Below are positions 1-55,456 of a stretch of DNA of 64,000 nt, piece after piece (positions within the stretch are counted from its first letter, which is position 1; every line of letters starts with the position of its first letter). The DNA is taken from contig CAWCTC010000001.1 in the NCBI GenBank assembly GCA_963798465.1, forward strand, positions 132,315 to 196,314, read 5' to 3'. A program made the position numbers and the translations under genes. Origin of the DNA: an uncultured bacterium (GTDB taxonomy: Bacteria > Patescibacteriota > Minisyncoccia > Phycocordibacterales > GWA1-40-21). The notes below the pieces were generated by a model, which ran no database searches, was not told where the DNA came from, and saw only the letters and a list, made by a program, of their open reading frames with translations.

Positions 1-548
1 GTGATGCCGTTGTATGTTTTTGTAGGCATGTCTTGAAGCGCTCCTTGAGTGAGAGAATCCATGGTTGCTTGGTCCATTTGCGAACCGTCAGCCGGCTGTG
101 AAGCGATGATGTTTGACATCAAATCTTCCGCGATTTTTTGCGTGGAATTTAGTTTTTCATATTCCGCGGTTGCTTCCTGACTTTGTGCGACGAGAGTCGG
201 ATCAATTTTGTCATTCGCTTCTTGTCCTTTTGGAGCGGTGTTTGCTTTAAGTGGATCTCTGTTTTCAGTGATTTCTTCTCCATCTGGCGTGCCATCTCCG
301 TCCGTATCAATATTATGAGGGTCTGTGCCGTAAAGAATTTCTTTCCAATCTGGCAGTCCATCGCCATCTGAATCCATGGTCATGACTGAAGATGTAGCGT
401 TTGCATCTGAAGCTGTCAAATTATTATTACTATATTTTGTGGTGCTTGGTCTCCAGTAATTTAAAATTATAATAACAACAACCAAAACAATTGCTGCTGA
501 AAGCGCTATTATAAAATTTTTTGATGGCAGATATTTTTTATTTATCAT
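1..548 (-). CDS. membrane-anchored protein with DxDxDG (thrombospondin type-3-like) Ca-binding repeats; C-terminus runs off the window
   Basis: ATG at 548-546 opens an uninterrupted minus frame to the window edge (absent from the ORF track because no stop lies in the window). N-terminal TM segment IIALSAAIVLVVVIIIL. Repeats DSDGDGLPDWKE and DTDGDGTPDGEE. Confidence 0.6.
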   Translation of the reverse strand, partial: MINKKYLPSKNFIIALSAAIVLVVVIIILNYWRPSTTKYSNNNLTASDANATSSVMTMDSDGDGLPDWKEILYGTDPHNIDTDGDGTPDGEEITENRDPLKANTAPKGQEANDKIDPTLVAQSQEATAEYEKLNSTQKIAEDLMSNIIASQPADGSQMDQATMDSLTQGALQDMPTKTYNGI

Positions 549-3390: not shown

Positions 3391-5385
3391 TTACCATTCA
3401 AGGTACACGATTTTCTCCCGATATTCAAATTTTTCTTCTTCCAAAAAGCCATTGTCGAATTCCCCAAGAAAAATTGATGGAAGATTCATCTGCATCGAAC
3501 CGAAAATCGTTCTCATTTCTGCATAAGTCATAAATAATTTTTTTCTTGCGCGCGTGACAGCGACATAAAATAATCTCCTCTCCTCCTCCATTTCTTCCGG
3601 AGTTTTTTCTGCACCGCTCATTCCTTGGTGCGGAAATAAATCTTGTTCAAGTCCGGTAATGAAAACATAATCGAATTCCAAACCTTTTGAAGCATGCACT
3701 GTCATCAGCTTCACCGCATTTTCATTTTTTTCTAATGTATCTTGATCCGAAGCAAGCGAACATTCTTCCAAAAGTTTTTCTACGCCTTCAAGTTTTGGCA
3801 AGTGATCGTATTTGATTGCGAGAGTTGCAAGCTCGCGCATGTTTTCCAATCTTTCTTTATCTTCGTCTCCGCCTTTTTGCAATTCGAGTTCAATTCCCGA
3901 TTCGCGAATTATAAATCGAATTACTTCAGATGGTTTTATACTTTCAGCTTCTTTCTTGATTCTCAAAAGCAAATTGAAAAAAGTATTTACTTTTTCTTTC
4001 ACACCGAGCGGAAGTTCATCTTTTTTTCCTTCAAATATTTTTAATATCGTGACTTTGCCGATTCCTCTTGCCGGAACATTTATAATTCTTTTTATATCAG
4101 ACAAACTTTCCGGATTCAAACTCGCGCGAAGAAAAGCCAGAATATCTTTTACTTCTTTTCTTTCAAAAAATTTTGTTCCAAGGACTTGGTACGGAACATT
4201 TTCTGTGAGAAATGCTTCTTCGAGAACGCGCGATTGAAAATTTGCGCGGTAAAGCACTGCAATTTCTCTCGGACTTGCTCCGTTTGCAATCAATTCTTGC
4301 GATTTTCTGGCTATAAATCTAGCTTCTTCAGTTTCATTTAAAGCCTTAAAAAATGAGACTTTTTCGCCTTCGGCGTTCTTTGTAAAGAGATTTTTTTCAC
4401 GTCTCAATTTATTATTTTTTATTACTTCATTTGCGACGGCGAGAATAGTTTGTGTCGAGCGATAATTTTGTTCAAGCAGAATTATTTTTGCTTCCGGATA
4501 ATCTTCTTCGAAACTCAAAATATTTTGAATGTCTGCACCGCGCCAGCTGTAAATACTTTGATCGATATCTCCTACCACGCAGATATTCCTATTTTTTGCA
4601 GCTAAAAGTTTTGCTGTCATATATTGGACTTTGTTTGTATCTTGGTATTCATCAATATGAATGTATTTCCAAAGATTCTGATATATTTCTAAAACTTCCG
4701 GATGATTTTTTAAAATATTGTAAGTTTTCAAAAGTAAATCATCGAAATCAAGAGCTTTTTCCTGTGCAAGTTTTTTTTCATACATTGGCCAGACTTTTCC
4801 GACGACTGCTTGCAGAGTGTATCCATTTTTATCTGAACCAGCAGAATATTCTTCCACGGAAACTAAATTACCTTTTTCCCTTGAAATAATATTCAAGATT
4901 TTGCTCGGTTCAAATTGTTTTGGATCTATATCCAAACTTTTCAAGCAATCTTTCACAAGTTTTGAAGAGTCGCTCCTGTCCATGATGCTGAAATTTCTCG
5001 TGAGGCCGATGAGCCGAGCGTTTTCTTTAAGAATATGAACGCCGAGAGAATGAAATGTGCTGATGAATGGTTTGTGATTGTAACTTACGGGAAAATTCAA
5101 ACTTTTCTCTTCAGAAATAATTTTCTCAACTCTTTCGCGCATTTCTTTTGAAGCTTTGTTCGTAAATGTGATAGCCAATATGCTTTCGGGACTTACTCCT
5201 TCTTTTATTAAATGTAAGATTCTGTGAGAAATCGTCTTAGTCTTTCCAGCTCCTGCTCCGGCGATTATTAAGATCGGTCCGTCTTTTTGTAAAACAGCTT
5301 CTTTTTGTTGTTCGTTTAGTCCTTCCAGATGAGTCATCGAATAAACCCGCTCACCTACTTTATTATTTTGATGATTATTATCCAT
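3391..5385 (-). CDS. uvrD: ATP-dependent DNA helicase, UvrD/PcrA/Rep family
   Basis: Walker A motif AGAGAGKTKT, DEYQDTN, and YRSTQ helicase motifs. 664 aa, intact. Confidence 0.9.
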   Translation of the reverse strand: MDNNHQNNKVGERVYSMTHLEGLNEQQKEAVLQKDGPILIIAGAGAGKTKTISHRILHLIKEGVSPESILAITFTNKASKEMRERVEKIISEEKSLNFPVSYNHKPFISTFHSLGVHILKENARLIGLTRNFSIMDRSDSSKLVKDCLKSLDIDPKQFEPSKILNIISREKGNLVSVEEYSAGSDKNGYTLQAVVGKVWPMYEKKLAQEKALDFDDLLLKTYNILKNHPEVLEIYQNLWKYIHIDEYQDTNKVQYMTAKLLAAKNRNICVVGDIDQSIYSWRGADIQNILSFEEDYPEAKIILLEQNYRSTQTILAVANEVIKNNKLRREKNLFTKNAEGEKVSFFKALNETEEARFIARKSQELIANGASPREIAVLYRANFQSRVLEEAFLTENVPYQVLGTKFFERKEVKDILAFLRASLNPESLSDIKRIINVPARGIGKVTILKIFEGKKDELPLGVKEKVNTFFNLLLRIKKEAESIKPSEVIRFIIRESGIELELQKGGDEDKERLENMRELATLAIKYDHLPKLEGVEKLLEECSLASDQDTLEKNENAVKLMTVHASKGLEFDYVFITGLEQDLFPHQGMSGAEKTPEEMEEERRLFYVAVTRARKKLFMTYAEMRTIFGSMQMNLPSIFLGEFDNGFLEEEKFEYREKIVYLEW

Positions 5386-6864: not shown

Positions 6865-6915
6865 ATAAAAATACAAAAGGGCGGCCGCTTCGCGGCCGCC
6901 CTTTTGTATTTTATT
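6864..6915. terminator. bidirectional GC-rich stem-loop terminator
   Basis: Core GGGCGGCCGC-TTCG-GCGGCCGCCC flanked by A/T runs, between convergent genes. Confidence 0.8.
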
Positions 6916-12732: not shown

Positions 12733-12775
12733 AAAAAACAAAGGGCGGCCGCTTCGCGGCCGCCCTTTGTTTTTT
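12733..12775. terminator. GC-rich stem-loop terminator
   Basis: Same 23-nt core GGGCGGCCGCTTCGCGGCCGCCC as at 6879 and 25677. Confidence 0.8.
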
Positions 12776-14796: not shown

Positions 14797-14849
14797 AATG
14801 CATTAAAAAAGAGCGGCGCCTTTGGCGCCGCTCTTTTTTAATGCATTTT
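14795..14849. terminator. bidirectional GC-rich stem-loop terminator
   Basis: GAGCGGCGCC-TTTG-GCGCCGCTC core inside a longer A/T-rich palindrome. Confidence 0.8.
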
Positions 14850-16183: not shown

Positions 16184-16600
16184 GTTATGTCCTTTACATA
16201 ATTTCTATAGGACATATAATGATATCGGAAAATAGTTTTGATGATATAGACAAGGAATAGTATGCAACTGCTTTCCATGTCCTCCTTTTCATCATAACAA
16301 AAGTATGTTCTTTCAATGAAAGTCTAGCTAACTTTCGAAAAATCAAATAGAAATTGTTTGGTAAAAAGATTATATCTTTCCCATCCTTAAAAATTACATC
16401 ATTTATATATATTATAAAAAGTAATTAAAGGAGTATAAAATTTTTACGAGATATTATCTAATTTGTAGCCGCTCAAAAATATCGCTCAGGTATTTGGAGC
16501 GGTTTTTTATTGGAAAATAAAGAGCGAAGCGACTATATTTCCCTGTATCCTGTAAATACTCGCTGAATTTATGTATTTACAGGGTTATTTCCATACGATA

Positions 16601-17290: not shown

Positions 17291-17489
17291 GTTTTACCCA
17301 AAAAGTGTTTATTTTAAAGCCTAAATTTTTGAATATAATTCCATTTTTTATAAATTATGTTGTGATGTGTCTGATAAAAAATTGAGAGTGTCTTTGAAAA
17401 AAATTCAAAAAACTATGGAAATAATTTTTGAAATGCGAACGAAGGGGAACACAATAATTTGTAATTTGGGTCCCACCCCAAATTACAAA

Positions 17490-17679
17490 TACGGAAAACG
17501 CGCCGAGATCGCTTCGCTTATCTTCCATTACATGGACGGTATACCTTTCGTATTTTTTTACATGAGTACATGTTAAAAAATATACTCAAGGTTTTTCGAT
17601 TCCCGGACGCAAGCAAAATTGTTTGCTTGCTCACTCGCACAAATGAAAAACACTCAGAATTCTGAGTGTTTTTCATTTG
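17490..17679 (-). other. tRNA-like trailer module behind tRNA-Gly(GCC)
   Basis: 56-nt perfect palindrome at 17632-17687 that includes the acceptor 3' strand. On the minus strand it is followed by TGCGAGTG, a 9-bp hairpin, CCGGGAATCGAA (complement of the T-arm 3' half), a long A/T hairpin, ATAC, and a TGTAA-loop hairpin. Confidence 0.45.
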
Positions 17680-17750
17680 TGCGAGTGCCGGGAATCGAAC
17701 CCGGGCCCAATCCTTGGCAAGGACTAGTTCTACCATTAAACCACACTCGC
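17680..17750 (-). tRNA. tRNA-Gly (anticodon GCC)
   Basis: Manual cloverleaf: acceptor GCGAGTG/CACTCGC, anticodon loop TTGCCAA, T-arm CCGGG-TTCGATT-CCCGG. No encoded CCA. Confidence 0.9.
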
Positions 17751-18447: not shown

Positions 18448-19953
18448 ATGAAAAAAACTATCCTAGAATATGGTCCAATTCCAAAAGAAGTTTTAGAAGT
18501 TTCAGAAACACTTAAAAAATCTGGTTATGAAGCTTACTTGGTAGGTGGTTGTGTTCGTGATATTTTGGTCGGTTTAAAACCAAAAGATTGGGATATTACG
18601 ACAAACGCCAAACCTGAAGATATAATAAGGATATTTCCGGATACTTTCTATGAAAATGTTTACGGAACGGTTGGTGTAGTGAATGAAACGGTTTCTGATG
18701 AAACGCTCAAGGTAATTGAAATAACGCCATATAGGCTTGAATCCGAATATTCTGACAATAGAAGGCCTGACAAGGTGACTTTCAGTGATAAGCTCGAAGA
18801 TGATTTGAAAAGAAGAGATTTTACAATAAATGCTATTGCTTTGGATATTGAAAATGAGGGAAGCAAGGAAGATTTTTATAAAGGACATATTGTCGATCTA
18901 TTTCACGGACAGGAAGATTTAAAAAATAAAATTTTGCGAACTGTCGGAGACGCGCATGAAAGATTTCAAGAAGATGGTCTTAGAATATTGCGCGCTGTGA
19001 GAATAGGGAACTATGTCGGATTTGAAATTGACAGTAAAACGGAAAAAGCATTAGCAGAAGAGTCTCACTTGCTTTCAAATATAGCAAAAGAAAGAATTCG
19101 CGATGAATTTGCAAAAATAATTATGTCGAAAGATCCAGAACAAGGATTAAAATCTTGTCAGAAATTTGGATTGTTAAAATTTATTATTCCAGAATTAGAA
19201 AAAACAATTAATGTTGAACAAGGCGGAGCGCACATTTACGATGTTTGGAATCATTCGCTCAAAGCATTACAATTTGCCGCCGACAAAAATTTTTCTTTGG
19301 AGCTTCGTCTTTCTGCACTTTTGCATGACATAGGAAAACCGAAATCAAAAAGGGAAGGAGAAAAAAAACCGACATTTTACGGCCATGAAGTTGTCAGTGC
19401 AAGAATGACGGAAAAAATTTTGCTGGATCTGAAATTTCCGACAAAAATAATTGAAAAAGTCACAAAACTCGTTAGAAATCATATGTTTTTTGCCGACACG
19501 GAACTTATTAGTTTGTCAGCTGTTCGAAGAATTGTTGCAAGAGTTGGGAAAGATAATGTTTGGGATCTTATGGATTTACGCGCTTGTGACAGAATAGGAA
19601 TGGGCAGACCAAAAGAAGATCCATATCGTTTGAGAAAATATCACGCGATGATTGACGAAGCGACGAGAGATCCGATTTCTGTAGGAATGCTTAATATTGA
19701 TGGAAAGAAAATTATGGAAGTTACGGGCGAAATTCCTGGACCAAAAATCGGTTTTGTTTTACATGCACTTCTTGAAGAGGTTTTAGATAATCCAAAATTA
19801 AATACTGAAGAATATTTAAATAAAAAAGCAATTGAACTTATTAAGCTCCCGGAAAAAAAGTTGCGAGAAATGGGTGAGGAAGGAAAAGAAAGAAAAGAAG
19901 AAAAAAATGAAGAAGAATTGAAAGAGATTAGAAAGAGTCATAAGGTCAGATAA
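18448..19953 (+). CDS. cca: CCA-adding tRNA nucleotidyltransferase with an HD domain
   Basis: GGCVRD nucleotidyltransferase head and LLHDIGKP HD motif. TGATATAAT sits 7 nt upstream of the ATG. Confidence 0.85.
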   Translation: MKKTILEYGPIPKEVLEVSETLKKSGYEAYLVGGCVRDILVGLKPKDWDITTNAKPEDIIRIFPDTFYENVYGTVGVVNETVSDETLKVIEITPYRLESEYSDNRRPDKVTFSDKLEDDLKRRDFTINAIALDIENEGSKEDFYKGHIVDLFHGQEDLKNKILRTVGDAHERFQEDGLRILRAVRIGNYVGFEIDSKTEKALAEESHLLSNIAKERIRDEFAKIIMSKDPEQGLKSCQKFGLLKFIIPELEKTINVEQGGAHIYDVWNHSLKALQFAADKNFSLELRLSALLHDIGKPKSKREGEKKPTFYGHEVVSARMTEKILLDLKFPTKIIEKVTKLVRNHMFFADTELISLSAVRRIVARVGKDNVWDLMDLRACDRIGMGRPKEDPYRLRKYHAMIDEATRDPISVGMLNIDGKKIMEVTGEIPGPKIGFVLHALLEEVLDNPKLNTEEYLNKKAIELIKLPEKKLREMGEEGKERKEEKNEEELKEIRKSHKVR

Positions 19954-19969
19954 AATTTGTTTTTATTTC

Positions 19970-21505
19970 ATGAACAAAGAACTTGTAACATATATTATTG
20001 CAAAGCTAAAGCAAGGAAATACTTTTGAATCGATAAAAGATGAGCTTATTAAATATGGCTGGTCTATCGATGATATAAATGCGGCTTACAAAAGTTGTAT
20101 TTCATCAAAAAAAACCGACGCTTTTTCTTTTTCAAAAATTTTTCATTCAAAAATTCCGAGAGTTATGAATATTTTTTTAATTTTTGTTTTTCTGGGATTA
20201 TTTGCCTGTTTTTTCTTATATTTTAAAAATCCGGTTTATAGCTATACGATAAATTTAGCCTCAGTAATTCCTGGCACAAAAACAGAAACTTTGAATTATG
20301 GGGAACAGCCAGCGTTATCAAATCCAGTTTTTTTTGATCAAGTAAAAAATCAATTTATTAGCGACAAAGTAAATTTTATTGAAGTTAATCTTTCTGACAT
20401 GTATGTAAAGGTCTACAAAAATGGCGACGATGTTTTGGATCTACCGGTAAAAACAATTGGCAGGGAAGGCTCGTGGTGGGAAACGCCTGCCGGACTTTAT
20501 AAAATAGAAACAAAAGAACCGACTCATTTTTCTTCTATGGGAAATGTTTATATGCCGTGGAGCATGGAATTTCAGGGAAATTTTTACATTCATGGTATTC
20601 CTTATTTTTCCGATGGAACGCCGGTCGCTACTTCATATTCCGGAGGATGTATCAGACTCGAAACTGATGATGCAAAAAAACTTTATGATGCGGTAGATAT
20701 TGGATACCCGATTCTTGTTTATAAAAATAGTTTTGAGCCCGATGATTTTCAATACACGGAAGCGGTTCCGACTTTGTCTGGGGCTTCTTCAATCGCAGTA
20801 GATATTGGAAATAATTATGTCTTTTCAGAAAATAATCCCGATGAAGTTTTGCCGATTGCCTCAATTACAAAATTGATGACTGCGCTCGTTACGACTGAAT
20901 ATATAAATCTTGATGATATTGCGACTGTTCCGCAGGAAGCTATAGTTTATACTTCCACTCCGCGTTTGAAAGTCGGAGAAAAAATAAGCGTCTATCAGCT
21001 TCTTTATCCTCTTCTTATGGAATCTTCAAATGAAGCAGCTGAAACTATCGCTAGATATTTTGGTCGCGATGATTTTATTGCTGACATGAATGCGAAAGCT
21101 GCTTCTCTTGGAATGACTCATACGCATTTTGCGGATCCGTCTGGAGCTTCTGCGGACAATGTTTCCACGGCTGAAGATTTGGTAACTTTGGCAAAATATA
21201 TTTATTACAATAGGCAATTTATATTGAATATCACATCCGGAAAAATAAATAATTCCGCCTATGAGCCGAATATGTTTACCGGTATGTCAGATTTCAATGA
21301 TTTTACAGATAATCCAAATTTTGTCGGAGGAAAAGTCGGAGAAACTACGGCAGCAAAAGAAACTGAACTTTCAATATTTGATTTGCCCATAGCAAACAGC
21401 ACCAGCACTCGGCCGATAGTCATAATTACTTTGGGCTCGGATAATAGAAAAAGTGATATACAATCCATGCTTGATTATATTTCAAACAATTTTTTTAAAA
21501 AATAA
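19970..21505 (+). CDS. fusion of an L,D-transpeptidase (YkuD) and a D-alanyl-D-alanine carboxypeptidase (peptidase S11)
   Basis: YkuD motifs IHG...SGGCIRL. S11 motifs SITK and SSN. N-terminal soluble domain followed by a TM segment. Confidence 0.8.
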   Translation: MNKELVTYIIAKLKQGNTFESIKDELIKYGWSIDDINAAYKSCISSKKTDAFSFSKIFHSKIPRVMNIFLIFVFLGLFACFFLYFKNPVYSYTINLASVIPGTKTETLNYGEQPALSNPVFFDQVKNQFISDKVNFIEVNLSDMYVKVYKNGDDVLDLPVKTIGREGSWWETPAGLYKIETKEPTHFSSMGNVYMPWSMEFQGNFYIHGIPYFSDGTPVATSYSGGCIRLETDDAKKLYDAVDIGYPILVYKNSFEPDDFQYTEAVPTLSGASSIAVDIGNNYVFSENNPDEVLPIASITKLMTALVTTEYINLDDIATVPQEAIVYTSTPRLKVGEKISVYQLLYPLLMESSNEAAETIARYFGRDDFIADMNAKAASLGMTHTHFADPSGASADNVSTAEDLVTLAKYIYYNRQFILNITSGKINNSAYEPNMFTGMSDFNDFTDNPNFVGGKVGETTAAKETELSIFDLPIANSTSTRPIVIITLGSDNRKSDIQSMLDYISNNFFKK

Positions 21506-21557: not shown

Positions 21558-21628
21558 CGGAGTGTAGTGTAACGGTAGCATTCGTGCTTTGGGAGCATGC
21601 GATCCGGGTTCGAATCCCGGCACTCCGA
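21558..21628 (+). tRNA. tRNA-Pro (anticodon TGG)
   Basis: Acceptor CGGAGTG/CACTCCG, anticodon loop TTTGGGA, T-arm CCGGG-TTCGAAT-CCCGG. Confidence 0.9.
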
Positions 21629-21836
21629 CAAAAACTAAAATAACCTTCAATTGAAGGTTATTTTAGTTTTTGTCGGAGTGTTCAAAGTGCTGGGAGCACT
21701 TTGAAAGGGATTCGAAGCCCGATTGTGTATTTTTTACAAGTTTAATAACGAAGTAAAAAATCCAATCGGGATACTGGTCGTGTAACGACCGAAATTCCCG
21801 GCAAATCTGGATTGGAAGTTTCGAAACTCCCGGCGA
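21629..21836 (+). other. tRNA-like trailer module behind tRNA-Pro
   Basis: 60-nt perfect palindrome at 21621-21680 that incorporates the acceptor strand. It is followed by CGGAGTG, a hairpin with loop TGGGA, GGGATTCGAA, a long hairpin CCCGATTG...CAATCGGG, ATAC, the hairpin GGTCG-TGTAA-CGACC, and GAAATTCCCGGCA. Confidence 0.45.
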
Positions 21837-23035: not shown

Positions 23036-23106
23036 GCGGGCATAGTTTAGTGGTAAAACAACAGTTTTCCAAACTGTGGTTGGGTGTTCGATTCACCCTG
23101 CCCGCA
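23036..23106 (+). tRNA. tRNA-Gly (anticodon TCC)
   Basis: Acceptor GCGGGCA/TGCCCGC, anticodon stem ACAGT/ACTGT with loop TTTCCAA, T-arm GGGTG-TTCGATT-CACCC. Confidence 0.9.
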
Positions 23107-23308
23107 CAAATGAAATAACCAACTTTTTTAAGTTGGTTATTTCATTTGTCGAGGCAAGCGAACAAACTGCTTTGTTCGTGTGGGTGAATCGAAAGACTTT
23201 TCCATATGAGCGAAGCGAAGCAGAAAAGTACCTGGCTACGTCGTAGCAGATTCACCCTGCCCGCACAAATGAAAAATCACTCAGTTTTCTGAGTGATTTT
23301 TCATTTTG
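23107..23308 (+). other. tRNA-like trailer module behind tRNA-Gly(TCC)
   Basis: Hairpin at 23107-23148. GGGTGAATC (23182-23190) pairs with GATTCACCC (23249-23257), enclosing GAAAGAC and two hairpins. The module ends with a direct repeat of the tRNA 3' end (23249-23265) followed by a second hairpin (23266-23308). Confidence 0.5.
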
Positions 23309-23348
23309 TAATGATTAACACATTTATTTTTTGTGCTATTATTTAATT

Positions 23349-25670: not shown

Positions 25671-25706
25671 TTTAAAAGGGCGGCCGCTTCGCGGCCGCCC
25701 TTTTAA
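25671..25706. terminator. bidirectional GC-rich stem-loop terminator
   Basis: Third copy of the core GGGCGGCCGCTTCGCGGCCGCCC, between convergent genes. Confidence 0.8.
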
Positions 25707-25715
25707 AATTTTTTC

Positions 25716-28856: not shown

Positions 28857-28864
28857 AATAAAGA

Positions 28865-28897
28865 AAAAGAGCGGCGCCTACGGCGCCGCTCTTTTTT
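28865..28897. terminator. bidirectional GC-rich stem-loop terminator
   Basis: GAGCGGCGCC-TAC-GGCGCCGCTC core. Confidence 0.8.
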
Positions 28898-28905
28898 GAT
28901 TTTGC

Positions 28906-31928: not shown

Positions 31929-32001
31929 GCGCTTATAGCTCAGTCGGTAGAGCAGCTCCCTTTTAAGGAGACGGTCGTTGGTTCGATTCCAACTAAGCGC
32001 A
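31929..32001 (+). tRNA. tRNA-Lys (anticodon TTT)
   Basis: Acceptor GCGCTTA/TAAGCGC, anticodon loop CTTTTAA, T-arm GTTGG-TTCGATT-CCAAC. Confidence 0.9.
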
Positions 32002-32205
32002 CAAATTTTTTATAAAAATTTGGGCAGCTTAAGGAAGCACCTGCGTGCTTTCGTGTTGGAATCGAAAGACTTTTCCTTATCGAATGAGCAAAGCGAAATG
32101 AGATGGAAAAGTACCTGGCTATGTAGTAGCCGATTCCAACTCAAGCGCACAACGCAAGCAATTAAAAATCGCCGGTTATCTATAAGGCGATTTTTTCTTG
32201 CGTTG
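32002..32205 (+). other. tRNA-like trailer module behind tRNA-Lys
   Basis: Hairpin at 32002-32022. GCAGCTTAAG resembles the acceptor 5' strand. GTTGGAATC (32055-32063) pairs with GATTCCAAC (32132-32140), enclosing GAAAGAC, the ACTTTTCC/GGAAAAGT hairpin and the GGCTA-TGTAG-TAGCC hairpin. The module ends TCAAGCGCA (32141-32149) and is followed by a hairpin at 32150-32205. Confidence 0.5.
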
Positions 32206-32350
32206 TGCGGACCGGACGAACGGAGTGAGGAGGTCGGGCTGTAACTTTGCTTTGAGTTCACGAAAAGCAAAAGTTATAGCCACAGTGAAATCAAAGTTTC
32301 AAATGAAGATAGTTTAAGAAGACTCTGATTGGAATGAACCAGTTTTTAGA

Positions 32351-39926: not shown

Positions 39927-39957
39927 CGGGCGGGTTTTGCTTCGCAAAACCCGCCCG
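39927..39957. terminator. GC-rich stem-loop terminator
   Basis: GGGCGGGTTTTGC ... GCAAAACCCGCCC. Confidence 0.75.
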
Positions 39958-40010
39958 ATTTTTCATTTTCCTAACCCTAAAGGATAAGGAAAATATATTC
40001 GCTTCGCTCA

Positions 40011-40580
40011 TTATTTTCCTAAAATTTTCAGTGCCGCCTTTATTCTGTCTCCAGTTTTTGTAATTGTTTTTTCTACATCGCGAAGTGCATCACGTGCATC
40101 TTTCGGATTGTAGCCGAGAGCTTTCAAAGCTTCGATTGCGTCTATTTCATCGCGAAGTGAAATATCATTTTCATCACCTGATATGCCGACCTTATCTTTT
40201 AGCTCGAGCACCATTTTGTCTGCAATCTTTTTTCCAATTCCTGAAACTTTTGTAAGATGGGAAGTGTCGCCGGTTGAAATTGCTCGCTTGAGTGCTGGAA
40301 CAGAACTGATGTTCAAAACATTTACGGCAGTTTTCGGACCGATTCCAGAAATAGAAATTATCATTTCAAAAAATTGCAATTCTTCTTCTGAAAGAAATCC
40401 ATAAAGATCGAGTGCGTCTTCTCTGACGACTAAATGAGTGAACAAGGAAATCTTTTCTCCTTTTTGCGCGACTTCTTTTGTTTCTGCTGTCGTGTAAATT
40501 TTAAAACCGATTCCGCCGACTCCGACAGTTAGAAATTTAACATTTGTGTCCCAAACTATACCTTCTATTTTTGATATCAT
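40011..40580 (-). CDS. ruvA: Holliday junction DNA helicase subunit RuvA
   Basis: MISKIEGIV..., two HhH motifs (ISGIGPKTA and VSGIGKKIA), and C-terminal domain III. Confidence 0.9.
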   Translation of the reverse strand: MISKIEGIVWDTNVKFLTVGVGGIGFKIYTTAETKEVAQKGEKISLFTHLVVREDALDLYGFLSEEELQFFEMIISISGIGPKTAVNVLNISSVPALKRAISTGDTSHLTKVSGIGKKIADKMVLELKDKVGISGDENDISLRDEIDAIEALKALGYNPKDARDALRDVEKTITKTGDRIKAALKILGK

Positions 40581-41511: not shown

Positions 41512-41761
41512 TTCTGCACCTCCAATTTTTTGTAAAACATCATTCTTACCTATTATAGCATTAATTACGTTAATGTCAAGAGTAGTAAAAATAACACATA
41601 TTCAAGGGTGTTTTTAATTGTACTGTGGTCAGGAATAATTTTCTCGTCGTCACTCGAAAATTTTCACTACCCTGACTCGTTTGTTTTGCTTGCTAGCAAA
41701 ACATAACTCCGTCTCGCACATGTATCAAAAAACACGAAGCAGTTCGTGTTTTTCTATCATG

Positions 41762-41833
41762 TGCGCCTACGTGGAATCGAACCACGATCAAACCCTTCGC
41801 AAGGGTTCATCCTATCCATTGAACGACAGGCGC
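41762..41833 (-). tRNA. tRNA-Arg (anticodon GCG as read)
   Basis: Acceptor GCGCCTG/TAGGCGC, anticodon stem AACCC/GGGTT with loop TTGCGAA, T-arm CGTGG-TTCGATT-CCACG. Confidence 0.85.
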
Positions 41834-43398: not shown

Positions 43399-43402
43399 AA
43401 TA

Positions 43403-43436
43403 AAAAGGGCGGCTGCTTTCGCGGTCGCCCTTTTTT
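43403..43436. terminator. GC-rich stem-loop terminator
   Basis: AAAAAGGGCGGCTGC-TTTC-GCGGTCGCCCTTTTTT. Confidence 0.75.
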
Positions 43437-43549
43437 GGTCTAAAGTTTTTATTATCCTTTAGGTAATAAAAACATTTAGACATGATTTTTGTGGTACAAA
43501 AATCAATTCTGCGGAATCACATCGCACGAGTCCTTTTGGTGCGATGCAA

Positions 43550-45871: not shown

Positions 45872-45958
45872 GGAAGAGTGGCTGAGTGGTTTAAAGCACC
45901 AGTCTTGAAAACTGGAGGGCTCGCAAGGGTCCCGTGAGTTCGAATCTCACCTCTTCCG
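45872..45958 (+). tRNA. tRNA-Ser (anticodon TGA)
   Basis: Acceptor GGAAGAG/CTCTTCC, anticodon loop CTTGAAA, long variable arm, T-arm GTGAG-TTCGAAT-CTCAC, discriminator G. Confidence 0.9.
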
Positions 45959-46135
45959 CAACGACAAATAAAAACAGCCTGGGAAGGCTGTTTTTATTTT
46001 GGCGTCATGGATGAAAGGTGAGATTCGAAAGACGGAGCCGACACGAACGATAGTGAATGAATCGGCGAGTCGGGGTCGCAAGTTCTTATGAGCGAAGCGA
46101 ATTAGAAACTTGGACCGAATCTCACCTCTTCCGCA
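45959..46135 (+). other. tRNA-like trailer module behind tRNA-Ser
   Basis: Hairpin AAATAAAAACAGCC...GGCTGTTTTTATTT. GGTGAGATTC (46017-46026) pairs with GAATCTCACC (46117-46126), enclosing GAAAGAC and hairpins that include a GAGCGAAGCGAA cap. A perfect 19-nt direct repeat of the tRNA 3' end lies at 46117-46135. Confidence 0.5.
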
Positions 46136-46161
46136 AAATAATTTTATGGTAAAATAAAAAG

Positions 46162-54712: not shown

Positions 54713-55456
54713 TTATAAATTTCTTTTCCAATTATCTAGAATTATTGCGGTCGCAATCGCTACATTTAAAGATTCTGCTTTTCCAAAAGCTGGGATTGTG
54801 ATTTTTTTTGTAATTAATTTCTCAATTTCTTCACTTACGCCGTTTGATTCATTTCCCATAACGAGAATTCCGCTTGCTGGGAATTTTGTTTCATGAATAT
54901 TTTCACCGTTTAAAAATGCACCGAAAATTGGCAGTTTTGTATATGAGAGAAAATCTTTCAAATCCGTGTAAAACATATTTACTCTAGTGAAAGAGCCTTT
55001 TGTCGCCGTGATAACTTTTGGATTGTAAAAATCTACGGTATTTTTTGAAGCAACAATATTTTTTATTCCATACCAGTCTGCGATGCGAATGATTGTTCCT
55101 AGGTTTCCCGGATCTTTGATTTCATCAAGTGCAATTACAACTTCATCTTTTTTGATTTCAAAATTTTTGTTTTCTTTTTGTTTCACGACAGCAAGTGCCG
55201 CATTATTTGTCGCGAAGGTTCCGACTTTTTCCAAATCAAATTGATTTACAATTTCATATGATTTTGATTTTTCTCTTATTTTTTCTCCATATTTGTCAAA
55301 AAATTCCGTCGTTGTGAGTAAAAGTTCAATTTCAAAATCTGAGTCGAGTAATTCTGAAACGCTTTTTTCTCCTTCGACTAAAAATAGTCCGAGCTCGACT
55401 CTGTTTTTCTTTTCATCCAGCGATTTTATAAGTTTTGCTTGGTTTTTCGTGAACAT
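54713..55456 (-). CDS. TrmH/SpoU family RNA methyltransferase (RlmB-like)
   Basis: N-terminal substrate-binding domain. SPOUT motifs DPGNLGTIIRIADW, MGNESNGV and ESLNVAIATAI. Confidence 0.8.
   Translation of the reverse strand: MFTKNQAKLIKSLDEKKNRVELGLFLVEGEKSVSELLDSDFEIELLLTTTEFFDKYGEKIREKSKSYEIVNQFDLEKVGTFATNNAALAVVKQKENKNFEIKKDEVVIALDEIKDPGNLGTIIRIADWYGIKNIVASKNTVDFYNPKVITATKGSFTRVNMFYTDLKDFLSYTKLPIFGAFLNGENIHETKFPASGILVMGNESNGVSEEIEKLITKKITIPAFGKAESLNVAIATAIILDNWKRNL

Follow-up and report, generated by a model that had tools for sequence, protein, structure and literature searches.

We analysed a window of 64,000 nucleotides (nt), positions 132,315 to 196,314 of contig CAWCTC010000001.1 (assembly GCA_963798465.1), from the low-GC genome of an uncultured bacterium of the Patescibacteria. 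The window carries RNase Y, ruvA, NAD kinase, and CCA-adding enzymes. A transfer RNA (tRNA) gene, tRNA-Lys(TTT), was located at 31929-32001 on the plus strand by ARAGORN and by the Rfam tRNA model (72.5 bits). Directly behind this gene, a module occupies positions 32002-32206. Its five parts are a spacer hairpin, X' (tRNA positions 57-72 in inverted copy), a core with a three-way junction, the tail (positions 57-73 in direct copy), and a terminator. The copied sequence, tRNA-Lys positions 57-73 (31985-32001), is referred to here as X. The module, its relatives behind other tRNA genes, and their possible origin are the subject of this study.

All parts of the Lys module are read on the plus strand. 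The spacer hairpin (CAAATTTTT-TAT-AAAAATTTG, 32002-32022), recognised from the sequence and from the fold of the tRNA 3' part, spacer, and X', lies between X and X' as the apex of a near-continuous palindrome, X-hairpin-X', which is predicted to fold with one unpaired position per side. X' is divided in two. Its acceptor part, GC[A]GCTTAAG (GCAGCTTAAG, 32024-32033), is the complement of the acceptor 3' strand of the tRNA; its T part, GTTGGAATC (32055-32063), is the complement of tRNA positions 57-65 and, together with the adjoining GAA, of positions 54-65. Between the two parts, an 8-base-pair (bp) mid hairpin with a CUGC loop (32033-32052) forms a side branch. The core (32064-32131) was assigned to class A of the core classes described below by RNAfold, by alignment together with covariation in its helix P_b, and by covariance model R1 (88.2 bits, E = 5e-22). 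It consists of the junction J1 GAAAG (32064-68), the helix P_a ACUUUUCC...GGAAAAGU capped by the mini-hairpin GAGCAAAGCGA (32069-32112), the junction J2 ACCU (32113-16), and the P_b hairpin with a GUA loop (32117-31). The tail GATTCCAACTCAAGCGCA (32132-32149), a direct copy of tRNA positions 57-73, pairs with X' and is followed by a hairpin resembling an intrinsic terminator in its sequence, AAAAATCGCC...GGCGATTTTTT within CAACGCAAG...CTTGCGTTG (32150-32206).

An earlier note, made from the letters of this stretch alone, had drawn attention to the module, and all of its Lys coordinates and sequence statements hold. GTTGGAATC (32055-32063) and GATTCCAAC (32132-32140) are exact complements; the tail equals the tRNA 3' end GATTCCAACTAAGCGCA (31985-32001) with one extra C at 32142; and in the pairing of GCAGCTTAAG (32024-33) with the tail, an A (32026) is bulged and there is one further flaw, which can be drawn either as an A.C mismatch or as a bulge of the extra C. 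The note had also likened the upstream strand to an acceptor stem. The strand does pair with the tail, but it is the complement of the tRNA 3' strand and not a copy of the tRNA 5' strand. A relative (locus L118, from the metagenome-assembled genome (MAG) 'Patescibacteria group bacterium bog_1341'), which is 94% identical, has the same Lys module without the extra A (32026) and without the extra C (32142) and with no other difference inside the module; L118 and the window are almost identical over a stretch of 3 kilobases (kb) around it.

RNAfold predicted that positions 32024-32150 form an acceptor-like stem, the 8-bp CUGC hairpin, and a 9-bp T-like helix capped by the three-way junction, with z = -4.8, and none of 200 shuffles folded equally well. 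The short word TCGAAAGAC by itself is weak evidence, with three matches against 0.74 expected and 4 of 100 shuffles reaching three; the Lys module as a whole is far above chance level.

Arms copied from the adjoining tRNA

In a pattern scan that covered one genome for each species, 117 loci were retrieved (numbered with the prefix L). The true homologues among them are essentially all from Patescibacteria, including Paceibacteria, Saccharibacteria, Campbell-, Yonath-, Zambryski-, and Spechtbacteria, and the remainder are chance matches. The general order is tRNA, spacer hairpin, X', core, tail, and terminator, with a module size of 120-250 bp. The spacer hairpin is often a canonical intrinsic terminator. 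X' is a flawless Watson-Crick inverted copy of tRNA positions 54/57-72: it is the reverse complement of the 3' strands of the acceptor and T stems and of T-loop positions 57-60, and GAA comes next. In modules with class A and class C cores, X' is split by a side hairpin, which mostly measures 8-9 bp and often has a CUGC loop. The tail repeats positions 57-73 in direct orientation and adds CA(A). In both modules of L010 and in L072, the tail itself is interrupted by an additional small hairpin that separates positions 57-59 from the T-stem 3' strand (an example is GAA-ACATGTACTCGTG-GTCTCCCC).

The arms differ from tRNA to tRNA, each fitting its own. Among the 77 tRNAs of the loci and the window, 34 were found to have the complement of their own T-loop and T-stem within 450 nt downstream with at most one mismatch, which bears out the earlier claim that the flanking helix co-varies with the tRNA. 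A tail copy with at most three errors is also present in 22 of these 34 modules. The armed modules span 15 tRNA types, to which the covariance-model matches add Ala, so that at least 16 types are represented. Decayed tails are common where X' is perfect, a comparison biased toward X' because the modules were detected through it.

The G.U pairs of the tRNA stems are informative on how the arms arose. In at least 11 informative G.U stems, X' has the Watson-Crick complement of the tRNA 3' strand and not the base of the tRNA 5' strand. This result, together with the pairing of X' with T-loop positions 57-60, shows that the module repeats the tRNA tail twice, once inverted and once direct. Together, the tRNA 3' part, spacer, and X' form a long near-perfect palindrome with arms of about 35-45 bp, in which 1386 Watson-Crick pairs were counted against 38 G.U pairs over the 34 modules; this points to a palindrome of the DNA type for the arms.

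These data also bear on a simpler origin, in which the module would be a decayed tandem duplicate of the tRNA that lost its D and anticodon arms and gained an insertion in its T-loop. Such a duplicate would explain the superficially cloverleaf-like layout of an acceptor-like stem, one hairpin, and a T-like stem. It is refuted by the G.U-pair test, since the 5' strand follows the complement of the 3' strand and not the tRNA 5' strand. Furthermore, the pairing with T-loop positions 57-60 is unlike a tRNA copy, and modules with class B cores have a continuous 16-bp helix without arm remnants. ARAGORN and the Rfam tRNA model (RF00005) were silent on the modules, finding just seven real tRNAs in the window and nothing at 32024-32150, 23151-23267, or 46003-46137. 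We therefore regard this origin as hardly credible.

Core structures and comparison with known RNAs

The cores, which are 60-110 nt long, fall into at least four interchangeable classes (A-D), all of them three-way-junction RNA structures. Class A comprises GAAAG, ACUUUUCC...GGAAAAGU, ACC, and a hairpin with a YGUAR loop; the sequence of P_a is almost invariant and P_b covaries. Class B comprises GAAAG, GAC[GGA]G...C[GA]GUC, GG, and GGUCG...UGACC. Class C is related to class A and has UAUAC and a P_a that varies, and class D comprises GGC[GGA]AU...UAU[GA]GCC and a second hairpin. The core of the Lys module and that behind tRNA-Gly(TCC) are about 80% identical over 45 nt (repeat family D19), and both copies match the class A covariance model at E ~1e-22, in agreement with the near-identical insert that the earlier note had described. 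It had placed the same module behind tRNA-Ser as well; the frame there is indeed the same, but the core differs and belongs to class B.

In the alignment of 30 class B sequences, 95.2% of the cells were paired, compared with 74% in shuffles, and double changes were observed at 23 of the 26 pairs. The covariation score was 0.534, compared with 0.168 in shuffles and about 0.06 with slid partners, and none of 500 shuffles scored as high. One G.U pair is kept in 21 of the 30 sequences, which fixes the tRNA strand as the functional one; given this pair and the strong covariation, class B is an RNA on that strand. Compensatory changes on one strand, as expected of a structured RNA, were thus found for class B and for P_b of class A. 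Compensatory double changes also distinguish the mid or side hairpins and spacer of the window from those of L120 at the Gly and Pro modules. These findings point to selection on the core at the RNA level, so that maintenance by selection, one of two possibilities raised earlier, is supported by the compensatory changes in the core helices.

Two covariance models, R1 for class A and R2 for class B, were used to examine the association with tRNAs. Of 59 good matches, 47 lie 35-275 nt behind a tRNA on the same strand, and two further matches lie behind tRNAs that contain group I introns and are missed by ARAGORN. The remaining matches are at locus edges, behind decayed modules, or in L108, where an orphan (3993-4067) has the arms of tRNA-Ser(GCT) and lies 2.7 kb away from that tRNA. 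In the window, all credible core matches stand behind tRNAs; a weak match at 54878-54968 is coding sequence, and one at 39942-40009 is merely the common GAGCGAAGCGA mini-hairpin described below. The possibility that the core is a generic intergenic repeat, which would have undone the earlier proposal, therefore fails. Tandem or nested modules occur in L025, L058, L064, L076, and L090, and in L064 a class B core holds a class C core within its P_b helix; further insertions appear to favour the tips of hairpins.

Short repeats offer a partial likeness. Repetitive extragenic palindromic (REP) sequences and bacterial interspersed mosaic elements (BIME), Rickettsia palindromic elements, Correia elements, and miniature inverted-repeat transposable elements (MITEs) are likewise short, protein-less, hairpin-forming, and multi-copy within a genome, with copies that can be tandem, nested, or decayed and that are often co-transcribed at gene 3' ends. 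In contrast, the arms of the module copy the adjoining tRNA, its place and orientation are strictly bound to the tRNA 3' flank, and its centre is a multi-helix RNA that is conserved, covaries, and keeps one G.U pair. A MITE or REP-like repeat was rejected since constant terminal inverted repeats are absent and the modules are not dispersed regardless of gene type.

Searches of Rfam 15 at gathering thresholds with the whole window and six module-bearing loci gave no module match, only tRNAs and hairpin-type noise, and at E <= 10 three modules of classes A and B (32024-32150, 23151-23267, and 46003-46137) gave hairpin-type chance matches only. No description of such modules was found in the searched literature. 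The family is apparently undescribed and new in kind, each of its closest analogues departing from it in at least one of the defining features tested. A transfer-messenger RNA (tmRNA) or permuted tmRNA was rejected because ARAGORN detected none, and a riboswitch for a downstream gene because the genes downstream are unrelated and stand behind empty sites as well.

Interchangeable structured classes at one genomic slot are typical of self-cleaving ribozymes. The cores might accordingly be ribozymes of new classes that cleave themselves, or cleave and ligate, and thereby process the 3' trailer of the tRNA or part the tRNA from downstream RNA, with the arms as substrate-binding helices, by analogy with the hepatitis delta virus (HDV)-like theta ribozymes beside phage tRNAs. 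Differing structured classes are indeed interchangeable at one slot here, their position beside tRNAs is fixed, and junction nucleotides are conserved (GAAAG; GAC/GUC with a GGA/GA internal loop; GUAC(C); YGUAR loops). The modules share with theta and other self-cleaving ribozymes a compact RNA 3' of a tRNA and a slot that several unrelated folds can occupy, but differ from theta ribozymes in that a spacer hairpin separates the tRNA from the core and in that no sequence or structure of a ribozyme family is matched. Known self-cleaving ribozymes (hammerhead, HDV/theta, twister, twister-sister, pistol, hatchet, and hairpin) gave no Rfam 15 match to the class A and class B modules scanned, even at E <= 10. 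Furthermore, no cleavage site could be inferred, and in armed forms the helix adjoining the core falls within the sequence of the mature tRNA or within the copy of it rather than at the 3' end of the tRNA. Taken together, we consider a ribozyme of this kind unlikely. Inspection by eye led us to reject the hammerhead, the hairpin ribozyme, and the archaeal bulge-helix-bulge, as CUGAUGA does not occur and the helix is continuous across the candidate junction.

The group I introns that occur in Patescibacteria tRNA genes are sporadic and mostly lack homing endonuclease genes, and group II introns have been reported to be absent from the phylum (PMC13011429). Like the modules, these group I introns are structured RNA insertions tied to tRNA genes in the same phylum; the module differs in leaving the tRNA uninterrupted, in being much smaller, in having no group I core, and in duplicating the 'exon' in both orientations. 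A group I intron was rejected as an identity of the module, as RF00028 was not matched in the window or six module-bearing loci at gathering thresholds or in the three modules scanned at E <= 10, the upstream tRNA is intact, and the core is just 60-110 nt. In L083 (about 150-400, minus strand) and L110 (1-160, plus strand), tRNAs interrupted by group I introns are each followed by a module. The conserved GATATAGTCC...ATGAAAATAGTGG motif is visible in these introns, which agree with the position 35/36 introns reported for the Asn and Asp tRNAs of Patescibacteria (PMC13011429). In L051 (2700-3240, plus strand), the arms of two tandem modules fit a tail ...CCCTGTAGGCACCCAA with no detectable tRNA ahead. 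The region ahead of them begins like a tmRNA 5' end (GGGGGCUGAUGAAGAGUCGAAC...AAACCCAGGUGG), and neither a tmRNA nor a tRNA was called in it by ARAGORN or Rfam.

Orthologous loci and possible origin of the modules

Orthologous loci were compared through a conserved neighbourhood of CCA-adding enzyme, tRNA-Pro, NAD kinase, RNHCP, and tRNA-Gly(TCC). Behind tRNA-Gly(TCC), a class A module is present in the window and L120, a class B-like one in L125, and a class D one in L126, and L122 and L124 have a simple terminator only. The site behind tRNA-Pro(TGG) is filled in the window and L120, decayed in L121, and empty in L122, L124, L125, and L126. Behind tRNA-Gly(GCC), the core is of class C in the window and of class A in L125 and L126, and the site is empty in L121 and L122. 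Orthologous loci are thus empty or hold different core classes, as expected if the insert has moved between tRNA contexts, the other possibility raised earlier. The terminator beyond the tail at filled sites resembles the terminator right after the tRNA at empty sites, which indicates that the inserted unit lies between two copies of positions 57-73. At the Gly(TCC) site there is a 58-nt direct repeat (family D9), and the repeat includes the downstream terminator there and in L115. The armless class B core behind tRNA-Arg is kept in L121, L122, L125, and the window.

This arrangement recalls tRNA-targeting integrative elements, that is, tyrosine-integrase islands or prophages and casposons, in which a direct tRNA 3' repeat from the T-loop likewise keeps the tRNA intact and the original 3' end and terminator are pushed to the far side. 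The direct repeat around the insert was found here as the tail copy of 22 of the 34 modules; no integrase or protein cargo accompanies it, the insert consisting of 120-250 bp of non-coding hairpins. The module further differs in being without integrase or casposase, in its extra inverted copy of the tail, in the occurrence of its cores behind at least 16 tRNA types with fitted arms, and in its cargo, a covarying RNA.

One could suppose that the modules are attL/attR attachment-site scars of integrase elements that entered at the tRNA T-loop and were later deleted to a stub, like cis-mobilizable elements (CIME). The direct tRNA 3' repeat from the T-loop flanks the insert, sometimes together with the terminator (L115 and the 58-nt D9 repeat at Gly(TCC)), and tail plus terminator correspond to the original 3' end of empty sites. 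Such scars would not explain why the same cores of 60-110 nt stand behind at least 16 tRNA types with arms fitted to each, nor why they covary as RNA. X' has no counterpart in att sites, the right junction is without the T-stem 5' half and TTC expected of attR, and no integrase is nearby. Consequently, we judge this origin very improbable.

We propose instead, giving it about an even chance, that the modules are insertion elements whose duplication of the 3' end keeps the tRNA intact, that they are exchanged via their highly conserved, tRNA-derived arms, and that their tail neutralises X'. The module would then be gained, lost, and exchanged and would not be a fixed part of the tRNA gene. Insertion in or after the tRNA 3' end would bring or make a second copy of positions 57-73, so that an intact tRNA would always be rebuilt; the logic would be that of tRNA-targeting integrative elements, on a scale one hundred times smaller and with no integrase involved. 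Few sequences are as conserved as tRNA tails, and for that reason the arms could act as portable homology, which might allow lineages to exchange cores and, more rarely, cores to spread to further tRNAs. Correction of the palindrome against the selected tRNA copy could keep the arms fitted, and the tail would serve to neutralise X', which might otherwise unfold the tRNA.

Several observations weigh against this insertion model. No integrase, transposase, or reverse transcriptase adjoins the copies at the inspected loci, where the neighbouring genes are NAD kinase, RNHCP, CCA-adding enzymes, HU, and RNase Y. A search for a core-less intermediate, X-hairpin-X'-X, found none, and pattern scans of IMG/VR viral contigs gave no copies, only chance matches in coding sequence. 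The matching of the arms to each new tRNA is left unexplained by the model. Moreover, many spacers look like efficient terminators, and transcription of the module is putative. The almost invariant P_a of class A, the armless cores kept in four genomes, and the covariation point to an RNA function relevant to the host, which a purely selfish model does not require, and the occupation of six of the seven window tRNAs in a reduced genome suggests utility.

All functional statements, including those that follow, rest on sequence analysis and predicted folding. For transcripts reading from the tRNA through the tail, the predicted minimum-free-energy fold is a long X:X' hairpin and not a tRNA plus module. 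In this second state, the tRNA 5' half (the 5' strands of the acceptor and T-stem) pairs with the tail; in the first state, a normal tRNA is followed by an X':tail hairpin with the core as its cap. Forcing the normal acceptor stem costs 7.6-9.6 kcal/mol, a figure in which tRNA tertiary contacts and modifications are not included. The two near-isoenergetic topologies could interchange by strand exchange in the read-through transcript. In transcripts ending before the tail, X' is predicted to disrupt the acceptor and T arms of the tRNA.

Such folds would suit a cis-acting switch of the host for tRNA maturation or folding, in which X' invades the tRNA 3' half from the spacer, the tail releases it, and the balance is set by the core, which would bind a protein or a ligand or let an RNase enter; alternatively, the X:X' duplex or the spacer hairpin alone might be an RNase III-type processing stem, as in rRNA operons. 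In addition to the two near-isoenergetic folds and the predicted loss of the acceptor and T arms in tail-less transcripts, X' is perfectly Watson-Crick and nearly uninterrupted from the spacer stem, core covariation is strong, and the module always lies downstream on the tRNA strand. The occupation of six of seven window tRNAs and the armless cores kept behind tRNA-Arg would also be expected of a host device. However, the close relatives L122 and L124 manage with empty sites at the same tRNAs, one slot is open to four unrelated core classes, and tails are often decayed with X' perfect, which would trap the tRNA; in addition, the many canonical terminators among the spacers should halt transcription before X'. 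A host switch thus seems possible but doubtful to us. As in attenuators and riboswitches, there are three mutually exclusive partners (X, X', and the tail); unlike those, the competing part is the body of a mature tRNA and not an expression platform. A likeness to tRNA-like structures (minihelices, mascRNA, and viral tRNA-like structures) also exists, in that the X':tail helix reproduces the sequence of the acceptor/T minihelix, but this helix runs through T-loop positions 57-60 without a T-loop, and its 5' strand is a complement.

A new RNA device acting by strand exchange with the tRNA is conceivable as well, in which the core would be a novel ribozyme or a protein-recruiting domain at a four-way junction of X:X' and 5' half:tail. 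Such a device could excise or insert the X-hairpin-X'-core unit at the T-loop between positions 56 and 57, or swap the tRNA 3' segment, and would amount to an intron-like mobile RNA with a spare 3' exon or to a system for replacing the tRNA 3' half. We think it improbable.

Should the modules prove real, a large share of the tRNA genes in some Patescibacteria, an ultra-reduced major radiation, would have an undescribed RNA module. At least four new folds supported by covariation would become candidates for catalysis or protein binding. The combination of an inverted and a direct tail copy would represent a new, integrase-free way to target tRNA genes while sparing the tRNA, and its layout would be a natural strand-exchange arrangement able, by the predicted folds, to switch a tRNA between folded and unfolded forms. 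The modules would also bear on tRNA annotation, on pseudo-tRNA calls, on the assembly of palindromic regions in MAGs, and on tRNA processing by genome-reduced symbionts with few RNases.

Other modules and features of the window

Six of the seven window tRNAs have a same-strand module or armless core behind them; tRNA-Arg(TCG) has none. The class A sister module behind tRNA-Gly(TCC) (tRNA, 23036-23106; module, 23107-23310, plus strand; 87 bits) consists of a spacer hairpin, X' (CG[A]GGCA, mid hairpin, and GGGTGAATC at 23182-90), core, tail (23249-23265), and hairpin, and has an orthologous copy in L120. The class B module behind tRNA-Ser(TGA) (tRNA, 45872-45958; module, 45959-46135, plus strand; 95.7 bits) has a terminator hairpin, X' with its T part at 46018-26, the core, and a perfect tail (46117-46133). 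Behind tRNA-Pro(TGG) (21558-21628), a module with a variant core resembling classes A and C (21629-21810, plus strand) has a 21-bp spacer hairpin, X' (CGGAGTG, mid hairpin, and GGGATTC), and a degenerate tail GAAATTCCCGGCA, and its orthologue is found in L120. The class C module behind tRNA-Gly(GCC) (tRNA, 17680-17750; module, 17440-17679, both on the minus strand; model match at 17514-17606, 20.5 bits) has a perfect X' (GCGAGTG ... CCGGGAATC) and a decayed tail.

Behind tRNA-Arg(GCG) (41762-41833, minus strand), an armless class B core is located at 41619-41726 on the minus strand (32.2 bits). In front of armless class B cores stands a hairpin whose pairing is limited to the last 4-5 nt of the tRNA; here, the complementary stretch (TGCG) just before the core covers the last 4-5 nt only. 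The same armless form is found behind tRNA-Arg(TCG) in L121, L122, and L125.

Two adjacent PolyA_pol / CCA-adding enzyme genes (18448-19953 and 19970-21505, plus strand; 501 and 511 amino acids) sit between tRNA-Arg(TCG) and tRNA-Pro, and the window tRNA genes do not encode CCA. The 511-amino-acid copy is also present in at least one relative (the contig carrying P0017), and L121, L122, and L125 show the 501-amino-acid gene only. The pair may be split CC-adding and A-adding enzymes.

The mini-hairpin GA-GCGAAGC-GA (GAGCGAAGCGA) caps helices in the modules and also occurs in spacer loops. It stands alone at two intergenic spots, 16520-16533 (plus strand) and 39998-40011 (minus strand), followed by TATATTTYCC; the word is also present in L093 and caps short hairpin repeats across many unrelated phyla.

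Two further repeat groups were observed in the window. Conserved motifs of about 40 nt, CATTTACCCGAGAAAATTTTTGC and GCAAAAACTTTARCGGGTKAA (families D3 and D4), which are roughly mutual inverted copies, form four pairs with the motifs 115-140 nt apart (8481-8526/8622-8658, 10250-10295/10364-10400, 40568-40613/40683-40719, and 55444-55489/55557-55593). Each pair lies just upstream of a minus-strand gene, one of which is ruvA, and the pairs may be a common operator or structured 5' leader. Terminators of protein genes with the near-identical GC-rich hairpin AAAAGGGCGGCCGCTTCGCGGCCGCCCTTTT (families D1 and D2) are located at 6874-6910, 12738-12774, 14806-14842, 25673-25709, 28864-28900, and 43402-43438. 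The AT-rich spacer hairpins that follow the window tRNAs for Gly, Lys, and Pro do not belong to this terminator family.

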